From Escherichia coli (GTDB taxonomy: Bacteria; Pseudomonadota; Gammaproteobacteria; Enterobacterales; Enterobacteriaceae), in NCBI RefSeq assembly GCF_002854065.1, contig NZ_CP024147.1: DNA of 64,000 bases, one strand, 5' to 3'. Positions 21,659 through 23,950 of the stretch are shown here, one piece after another. The translations under genes and the position numbers were made by a program. The notes beneath the pieces were generated by a model that searched no databases, was not told the origin of the DNA, and was given only the letters and a program-made list of their open reading frames with translations. Position 1 is the first letter of the stretch. Every line of letters begins with the position of its first letter.

Positions 21659-23950
21659 TTAATCTTTCCAGTTCTGTTTCGCGTCTTTAATAAAGGAGAG
21701 CGTCACCATAATGTTGACGAAGAACAGCGGGCATCCTCCGGCGATAATGGCGGTTTGAATCGGTTTCAGGCCGCCGAGCGCCAGCAGAACAATACCGATA
21801 ATGCCAACCAGAATTGACCAACCGATACGCACCAGCAGCGGCGGCTCTTCACCATCGCGTACTTCGCGGCAAGTGGACATCGCCAGGGTATAAGAGCAGG
21901 CGTTAACCAGCGTAACGGTGGCAATAAAGCAGAGGATGAAGAAGCCCCACATGGTGGCGGTGCTGAGTGGCAGAGCGGCCCAGGTTTCGATGATGGCGCG
22001 CGCCACACCGTACTGTTCGATCAGATTTGGAATGTTGATGATGTTTTTATCTATCAACAGCAGAGTGTTACTACCGAGCACGGTCCACAGGATCCAGGTT
22101 GACGCTGTCAGCCCCATCACCATGCCGAAGCACAGTTCACGCACAGTACGACCACGGGAGATGCGGGCGAGGAAGATACTCATCTGGATAGCGTAAATCA
22201 CCCACCATGCCCAGTAGAACACGGTCCAGCCCTGCGGGAAGCCGCCTTTAGCGATGGGATCGGTATAGAACAACATGCGCGGCAGATACATCAGCAACAT
22301 CCCCACCGAATCGGTGAAGTAGTTCATGATGAAGCTGGCACCGCTGACGATGAACACCCAACCCAGCATCAGGAAGCTCAGGTAACTACGCACGTCACTG
22401 GCGATACGTACCCCTTTTTGCAGACCGCAGGCGACGCAAATGGCGTTGAGGATAATCCAGCAGGTAATGATGATAGCGTCCAGTTGCAGGGTATGCGGAA
22501 TGCCAAACAACCATTGCATACACTCGGTCACCAGCGGCGTGGCAAGGCCCAGACTGGTACCCATCGCGAAGATCAAGGCGACGAGATAGAAGTTGTCGAC
22601 GATGGTACCGAACAACCCTTTGGCGTGTTTTTCACCTACCAGCGGCACCAGTGTCGAGCTGGGGCGAATCACTTCCATTTTGCGGACAAAGAAGAAGTAA
22701 GCGAAGGCGACTGAAAGGAAGCTGTAAGTGGCCCACGGCAGGGGTCCCCAGTGGAACAAGCTGTAAGCCAGCCCCAACTCTTTCGCTCCTGTCGAGTTCG
22801 GTTCTAAGCCAAACGGCGGGGTGGAGATGTAGTAGTAGATCTCAATCGATCTCCAGAACAGTACGGCAGCAGACGTACAGGAGGCGAACATCATAAAGAT
22901 CCAACTGGCGGTACTAAATTCAGGTGGTTCGTTAGGTGATGCTGCCAACTTACTGATTTAGTGTATGATGGTGTTTTTGAGGTGCTCCAGTGGCTTCTGT
23001 TTCTATCAGCTGTCCCTCCTGTTCAGCTACTGACGGGGTGGTGCGTAACGGCAAAAGCACCGCCGGACATCAGCGCTATCTCTGCTCTCACTGCCGTAAA
23101 ACATGGCAACTGCAGTTCACTTACACCGCTTCTCAACCCGGTACGCACCAGAAAATCATTGATATGGCCATGAATGGCGTTGGATGCCGGGCAACTGCCC
23201 GCATTATGGGCGTTGGCCTCAACACGATTTTACGTCACTTAAAAAACTCAGGCCGCAGTCGGTAACCTCGCGCATACAGCCGGGCAGTGACGTCATCGTC
23301 TGCGCGGAAATGGACGAACAGTGGGGCTATGTCGGGGCTAAATCGCGCCAGCGCTGGCTGTTTTACGCGTATGACAGTCTCCGGAAGACGGTTGTTGCGC
23401 ACGTATTCGGTGAACGCACTATGGCGACGCTGGGGCGTCTTATGAGCCTGCTGTCACCCTTTGACGTGGTGATATGGATGACGGATGGCTGGCCGCTGTA
23501 TGAATCCCGCCTGAAGGGAAAGCTGCACGTAATCAGCAAGCGATATACGCAGCGAATTGAGCGGCATAACCTGAATCTGAGGCAGCACCTGGCACGGCTG
23601 GGACGGAAGTCGCTGTCGTTCTCAAAATCGGTGGAGCTGCATGACAAAGTCATCGGGCATTATCTGAACATAAAACACTATCAATAAGTTGGAGTCATTA
23701 CCGGTTCGTTACCTAAACGCTTTTTGGCATACGGGCCAAACACCAGCCAGAACCAACCGAAAAGCATCACCACCATATACCATTCAAATGCCCATCCCCA
23801 TACATTGGTGACGTAACTGAATACAGCATTAATAACGATATTCGCCGCATCCAGATCTCTGACTGTAAGCCAACAAAGTATGCCGACGATTATTAATGGC
23901 GGAAAGAAAACCTTCGGTTCTATTCCCGTTTTTCTCTTTTCATTCTTCAT
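21659..23950 (-). pseudogene. caiT: caiT (L-carnitine/gamma-butyrobetaine antiporter, BCCT family) interrupted by IS1
   Basis: N-terminal 89-aa ORF (23681-23950, [16 protein letters not shown]...) reads into IS1; the rest of the transporter is 21659-22948. Removing IS1 plus 9 bp gives a 504-aa transporter. Confidence 0.9.
22935..23702 (+). mobile_element. IS1 insertion sequence, 768 bp, copy 2, inside caiT
   Basis: Same terminal sequences as copy 1; insA 22990-23265, insB frame 23184-23687; flanked by 9-bp direct repeat GGTTCGTTA (22926-22934 and 23703-23711). Several substitutions relative to copies 1 and 3. Confidence 0.95.

Follow-up and report, generated by a model that had tools for sequence, protein, structure and literature searches.

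An IS1A-type insertion in caiT beside two IS1R/IS1B-type copies in a 64-kb segment of Escherichia coli

The segment of Escherichia coli DNA considered here, called the window throughout (the whole stretch of 64,000 nucleotides that was analysed), raises a question of molecular genealogy: How did caiT come to be interrupted by an insertion sequence of the IS1 family that differs from the two other IS1 copies of the same window, one of which interrupts another gene of the same operon? Homology with annotated E. coli genomes places in the window, from one end to the other, the rpsT-ileS region, carAB, caiF, caiEDCBAT, fixABCX and the leu operon. Repeat search and three-way alignment recover three full-length IS1 elements within its 64 kb, each of 768 bp. 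The first lies in caiC at about codon 426 of 517 and the second in caiT at about codon 80 of 504, both oriented opposite to the cai genes, while the third is located downstream of both espY2 and sgrR, again as judged by this homology. The elements, their target duplications and the two remnants of caiT are as follows.

17006-17014 and 17783-17791: 9-bp target duplication of copy 1, GCCACCGCG
17015-17782, plus strand: IS1 copy 1, IS1R/IS1B-type, inside caiC, absent from the relative CUWW06
21659-22934, minus strand: 3' part of caiT, beginning near codon 80 and including the stop codon (CUWW06 caiT annotation and open reading frame)
22926-22934: left copy of the 9-bp target duplication of copy 2, GGTTCGTTA (flank comparison; single copy at the empty site of CUWW06)
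22935-23702, plus strand: IS1 copy 2, IS1A/IS1E-type, complete, 768 bp, inside caiT
23703-23711: right copy of the 9-bp target duplication of copy 2, GGTTCGTTA (flank comparison)
23703-23950, minus strand: 5' fragment of caiT, with its ATG at 23950, running into the right end of IS1 to give an 89-aa junction product
58916-59683, minus strand: IS1 copy 3, in the intergenic space separating espY2 from the 3' end of sgrR; 9-bp duplication TCTCTGTTT

Two further features of the window can be mapped from the annotation of CUWW06, namely a ccdA/ccdB toxin-antitoxin pair between folA and apaH (window 32413-32963; L010:306-856) and a short, frameshifted remnant of a gene for a transposase DNA-binding domain between espY1 and rluA (window 41829-41958; L010:9722-9851).

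The target duplications of the three copies are of 9 bp each and matched on both sides, IS1 being expected to duplicate 8-9 bp of its target (PMC12428005). Since every copy retains its own matched duplication, the three represent simple insertions, without later deletion or inversion through recombination of one IS1 with another. The terminal inverted repeats are the same in all of them: the left end reads GGTGATGCTGCCAACTTACTGAT and the right end, in reverse complement, GGTAATGACTCCAACTTATTGAT, forming imperfect repeats of about 23 bp in which the two ends agree at 18 of 23 positions. Along the rest of the element, copies 1 and 3 align with 768/768 identical positions, whereas the copy in caiT departs from both by eight substitutions and no indels: T127C, C262T, C298A, C301T, T304C, A393C, C396T and G444T. 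All eight fall inside one stretch of 318 bp (element positions 127-444), and the ends are identical. The initial annotation of this DNA had described the caiT element as a sequence variant apart from the other two, with coordinates that prove to be exact, and had given copies 1 and 3 the same InsA protein, as their complete identity now confirms.

What these substitutions mean for the proteins depends on the frame in which they are read. The coding features of the caiT copy are the following.

22990-23265, plus strand: insA, 91 aa with a GTG start, differing from copies 1 and 3 by F81L only
23241-23247, plus strand: the A6C motif (AAAAAAC) for programmed -1 frameshifting, intact
22990-23687, plus strand: insAB', a 232-aa fusion via the -1 frameshift, with F81L and R130S relative to copies 1 and 3

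In element coordinates, insA occupies frame 2 from its GTG start at position 56 and encodes 91 aa, B' is in frame 1, and AAAAAAC lies at 307-313, intact in all three copies; the role of this motif in IS1 frameshifting has been described (PMC12428005). Frameshifting as predicted here would yield, in each copy, a conceptual fusion of 232 aa free of stops, the InsAB' transposase. In the frames that are translated, the eight differences amount to two amino-acid changes and six synonymous ones, a proportion in keeping with purifying selection acting, in both lineages, on InsA and InsAB'. The first change, F81L, affects InsA as well as InsAB' and falls within the match to HTH_Tnp_IS1 (PF12759, the C-terminal domain of InsA; residues 43-86); the second, R130S, affects InsAB' within the match to DDE_Tnp_IS1 (residues 102-232). 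Four differences upstream of A6C are all non-synonymous in the B' frame, and in the InsA frame they correspond to F81L plus three synonymous changes, which is in keeping with translation of InsA alone in that stretch.

Several protein changes listed in the initial annotation can be placed accordingly. Its change of FRHL to LRHL in InsA is F81L, and its change of AYDRLRKT to AYDSLRKT is R130S of InsAB'. The replacement of ALPDIS by APPDIS has instead to be withdrawn as an InsA change, for the string belongs to frame 3, which is non-coding, and the underlying T127C is synonymous at Thr24 of InsA (ACT to ACC). The alteration given for the InsB frame, MPGNR..PPFKK to MPGNC..TSLKK, is partly sound: it is real text of the B' frame, but it is upstream of A6C and lies outside the InsAB' transposase. 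The R-to-C and PPF-to-TSL replacements, which databases place at the start of 'InsB', precede the frameshift site and consequently are not part of InsAB'. The N-terminus annotated for 'InsB' upstream of that site is thus a poor guide to protein change. Regarding domains, the Pfam profiles PF03811 (Zn_ribbon_InsA), PF12759 (HTH_Tnp_IS1) and PF03400 (DDE_Tnp_IS1) all score above their cut-offs in both isoforms, and the NCBIfam equivalog NF033558 reaches about 243 bits versus a cut-off of 100. All three copies therefore display the length and ends, the target duplication, the insA and B' frames with A6C, and the transposase domains of the IS1 family.

To which isoforms do the copies belong? The references were the six IS1 copies of K-12 MG1655 and one IS1 of R100, records that stand in here for ISfinder entries. 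Those closest to copies 1 and 3 among the K-12 elements include the following loci.

L004:2164-2931 and L004:13635-14402: K-12 IS1B/C
L005:2779-3546: K-12 IS1D

The element in caiT is identical to K-12 IS1A/IS1E at 767 of 768 positions and 9 nt away from IS1B/C; it shares with IS1A all seven type-defining bases, at positions 127, 298, 301, 304, 393, 396 and 444. Copies 1 and 3 are 1 nt from K-12 IS1B/C (position 704), 3 nt from IS1D and 8 nt from IS1A/E. On the basis of such near identity to the references, the caiT copy can be assigned to the IS1A isoform and the other two to the IS1R/IS1B isoform, and the comparison bears out the earlier suggestion that at least two IS1 lineages are present. 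Alignment of the three 768-bp copies and comparison with known isoforms also establish that the copies are not all identical and that their variants are not read errors, since seven of the eight differences are polymorphisms between K-12 IS1A/E and IS1B/C and the whole caiT allele occurs, at 768/768, on many plasmids.

Both alleles are indeed common. On plasmids the exact allele of copy 1 (768/768, on many of them) is annotated as 'IS1B family' and that of the caiT copy as 'IS1-like element IS1A family', and for both alleles the plasmid hosts include Escherichia, Klebsiella, Salmonella and other genera. The label that PGAP gives to the copies identical to copy 1, in CUWW06 as on plasmids, is IS1B family, and the protein annotated at the copy-3 site of CUWW06, WP_095033700.1, is annotated in R100 as well. 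The K-12 chromosome is known to carry four IS1 sequence types (PMC12428005). Coexistence of IS1 isoforms in one E. coli chromosome is, then, an already known and ordinary situation, and both alleles found here are catalogued and widespread; the variant in caiT matters little beyond annotation hygiene. It does remind us that clonality of the IS copies within one genome is not to be assumed, and isoform markers can be used for tracing the resident IS1 source of each new insertion.

The age of the insertions can be judged from a close relative, E. coli CUWW06 (NZ_CP182139.1), which shows 15 differences from the window backbone in 62,464 bp (99.976% identity). One extra G at window position 1089, intergenic between espX1 and rpsT, is the sole indel versus CUWW06 across these 62.5 kb. 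In CUWW06, caiC and caiT are intact, the site of the caiT insertion is empty and single-copy, and neither cai insertion is present; copy 3 is found there (L010:26809-27576), its site and duplication being those of the window, at 100% identity over 2 kb. In E. coli 100416, too, the whole 2-kb stretch of copy 3, IS1 included, aligns in one piece at 99.8%. Precise excision of insertion sequences is rare, one event having been recorded in 520 mutation-accumulation lines (PMC5009759). Since copies 1 and 2 are missing from CUWW06 and copy 3 is common to both genomes, the two cai insertions are recent and copy 3 is older than either. No full-identity match to the junction of either cai insertion was found in any other complete genome searched. 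CUWW06 contains at least 40 IS1 matches and thus belongs to an IS1-rich lineage; the two IS1 elements found in about 173 kb of its chromosome (annotated 50-kb blocks) are both of the type of copy 1, and no IS1 was found on its plasmid pCUWW06A. Given the absence of copies 1 and 2 from CUWW06, both isoforms would appear to be transposition-competent in this lineage.

For the host, loss of carnitine metabolism is expected from insertions within the cai coding sequences, considering the gene order (T, A, B, C, D, E) and the position of the insertions. The 89-aa CaiT/IS1 junction product is matched exactly by a single draft assembly at NCBI (GCA_035821435.1) and by the Logan set ERR10376543, so that the caiT insertion is present in independent data. 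An exact-protein look-up returned no record of the 459-aa product of the caiC::IS1 junction, probably because draft contigs stop within IS1 before the stop codon, and the left junction of IS1 with caiT, GGTGGTTCGTTAGGTGATGCTGCC, had no matches in the species-representative genome collection.

Other E. coli strains have received IS1 in the same part of caiT. When the caiT junction together with its IS1 served as a query of 1.77 kb, nine among 5,426 complete genomes showed a place where 80% or more of it was covered. Among other E. coli there are independent insertions in caiT, of IS1A type and in the same orientation: that of CAVP879/CAVP880 is 4 bp from the one described here, with the duplication CGTTACCTA, and that of H1827/12 is 77 bp away. 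The distance of 4 bp and the different duplication rule out that the CAVP879 element represents the same insertion as ours. The interval concerned is the following.

22926-23790, the 5' part of caiT: window equivalent of nearby caiT IS1 positions in other E. coli (L002:8505, L001:8582, L012:6626)

This interval may constitute a local hot spot for IS1, or its occupancy may reflect losses of the cai operon that occurred repeatedly and were tolerated. A different outcome is seen in E. coli O7:H4 MIN14 (L012:6322-7628, equivalent to window 17816-23716), where a single IS1 joins a remnant of caiC to the 5' remnant of caiT and the deletion covers caiC', caiB, caiA and caiT'. Such an arrangement could be produced by recombination between copies 1 and 2, which are direct repeats spaced 5,920 bp start to start around a segment of about 5.15 kb (caiC', caiB, caiA and caiT') and share an unbroken identical run of up to 324 bp (element positions 445-768). 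The direct pair is in fact a ready substrate for recombination, which could delete the bracketed 5.15 kb or so. The MIN14 element is not the product of these two copies, however: its junctions are offset by 34 bp from copy 1 and by 14 bp from copy 2, and the strain has consequently undergone an independent IS1-mediated deletion.

Where, then, did the caiT copy come from? Very probably it belongs to the IS1A/IS1E class, as an ordinary and intact element, and moved into caiT from an IS1A-type donor, in an event separate from the insertion in caiC. The initial annotation had already argued that the caiT insertion did not derive from the caiC copy, and this is sustained by the count of substitutions: at the backbone rate of CUWW06 about 0.18 are expected in 768 bp versus the 8 observed (Poisson probability of eight or more, ~3e-11), which leaves later gene conversion as the sole route by which it could descend from the caiC copy. 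Descent of the caiT copy from a direct copy of element 1 or 3, through eight point mutations gained after insertion, is effectively refuted by the same figure and is the least credible of all the readings considered; the shared ends and length, and nothing more, speak for it, while seven of the eight changes are existing polymorphisms between IS1A and IS1B and the full allele is already carried by many plasmids. Gene conversion deserves more attention. A transposed element of the type of copies 1 and 3 might have been overwritten later, across positions 127-444 at least, by an IS1A-type copy located elsewhere, and the confinement of all the differences to one stretch between identical ends speaks for such an event; the resident copies sampled in CUWW06, moreover, are all of the type of copy 1. 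Exchange is also suggested by sites 262 and 444 (window 23196 and 23378 in the caiT copy), which read T/T in the caiT copy, A/T in K-12 IS1A, T/G in H1827/12 and A/G in MIN14. The presence of all four combinations among A-type copies indicates that either recombination or gene conversion between IS1 elements, or else recurrent mutation, has probably been at work, and it keeps conversion of the caiT copy after insertion conceivable. We nonetheless regard conversion as improbable: it needs two events, transposition and then conversion at every variable site, within the brief interval that separates the window from CUWW06 (0.024% divergence), and still requires an IS1A-type donor in the cell, and the clustering of the differences is without discriminating power because the two types do not differ outside positions 127-444. 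As conversion needs this donor too, the conclusion of two lineages stands either way.

Two other readings appear less probable again than conversion. It is at copies of insertion sequences that assemblies classically collapse or are mis-polished, and draft assemblies with the caiT insertion break within IS1, their contigs reaching 28-75 bp into it; reads of another IS1 copy might thus have been mis-assigned to caiT during assembly or polishing. Yet the caiT allele is a coherent natural haplotype (768/768 on plasmids), with intact frames and no mosaic of ambiguous bases, and even misplaced reads would imply that this genome contains an IS1A-type copy, and two lineages would remain. Slightly lower still we place the possibility that a caiT::IS1 allele already formed in another strain was imported through homologous recombination in the cai region. 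The IS1A-type insertions lying so near in the caiT genes of CAVP879 and H1827/12 lend it some appeal, but their sites are 4 bp and 77 bp off, with different duplications, and the copies of H1827/12, CAVP879 and MIN14, inspected in detail, all occupy other sites. Across the 5,426 complete genomes, the places that cover 80% or more of the junction query include no match of full identity. The flanks of the caiT copy are about 99.97% identical to CUWW06 and show no SNP cluster relative to this strain, which argues against import of a ready-made tract; SNP density between copies 1 and 2, tested as a mark of import or decay, is not significantly raised, this segment of 5,152 bp containing 2 of the 15 differences (P = 0.35).

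Returning to transposition from an IS1A-type donor, the reading that we prefer, we infer that the donor would be a plasmid or else a further copy on the chromosome beyond the window, and the frequency of the allele on plasmids makes the former plausible. No such donor was seen in the sequences covered: the 64-kb window has no second IS1A-type copy and the copies sampled in CUWW06 are of the type of copy 1. The mechanism would be that of any IS1. InsA, with its zinc ribbon and helix-turn-helix, would be the default product and act as repressor, whereas a rare -1 frameshift at AAAAAAC would generate the InsAB' transposase; this would then act on the 23-bp terminal inverted repeats and produce the 9-bp target duplication.

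The layout of the two cai insertions recalls a known type of mobile structure. In the composite arrangement of Tn9, IS1 elements bracket the segment that lies between them, and copies 1 and 2 likewise bracket, as direct repeats, the 5.15 kb with caiC', caiB, caiA and caiT'. Each of these copies has its own target duplication, however, and this difference points to two separate insertions in place rather than to movement of a composite unit; no evidence was found for mobility of the layout formed by copies 1 and 2.

With regard to the IS1 of R100 (NC_002134.1, 21225-21992), which we take to be the classical IS1R prototype, copies 1 and 3 are identical at 767 of 768 positions and encode the same InsAB', with F81 and R130; they differ at position 127, T in our copies and C in R100, a synonymous change. 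Among the K-12 elements, IS1A/IS1E (type I or 'consensus'; PMC12428005) resemble the caiT copy in having identical InsA and InsAB' proteins, with L81 and S130, and the same terminal repeats, A6C motif and length. They differ from it at position 262, where T in the caiT copy replaces A; the change is synonymous in InsA, and its effect is confined to that upstream portion of the annotated InsB which is not translated (Ser to Cys, yielding 'MPGNCPHYG'). K-12 IS1B/IS1C (type II) resemble copies 1 and 3, with 767/768 identity and with all seven bases that separate them from IS1A/E in common, the difference being A at position 704, which produces L217Q in InsAB' where copies 1 and 3 keep the Leu217 of R100. 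Relative to the transposase of R100 and copy 1, the private substitutions are thus L217Q in K-12 IS1B/C and H193Y in K-12 IS1D.

These comparisons have a bearing on IS1 activity. In K-12 only IS1A/E are reported to transpose appreciably, IS1B/C being nearly unable to do so, and it was suggested in 2025 that L81F may impair the transposase of the other K-12 types (PMC12428005). The R100-type IS1 with F81 has apparently inserted recently in the present lineage, which is pertinent to that proposal: copy 1 is only 1 nt apart from the IS1B/C of K-12, reported as nearly immobile (PMC12428005), and yet it represents a recent insertion in caiC. From the presence and absence of these insertions, the K-12 defects may reside in L217Q or H193Y, or else in genomic context. 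We advance only tentatively, with our judgement almost evenly balanced and leaning slightly toward doubt, the broader proposal that both isoforms have been recently mobile in an IS1-rich lineage, including an F81/R130 element 1 nt from K-12 copies reported as near-immobile, and that the 5' part of caiT is a recurrent target of IS1. If this were true, the recurrence would be expressed in the hits 4 bp and 77 bp off and in the caiT-side junction of MIN14, 14 bp off, and the inactivity of IS1B/C and IS1D in K-12 would be better explained by L217Q and H193Y, respectively, than by L81F.
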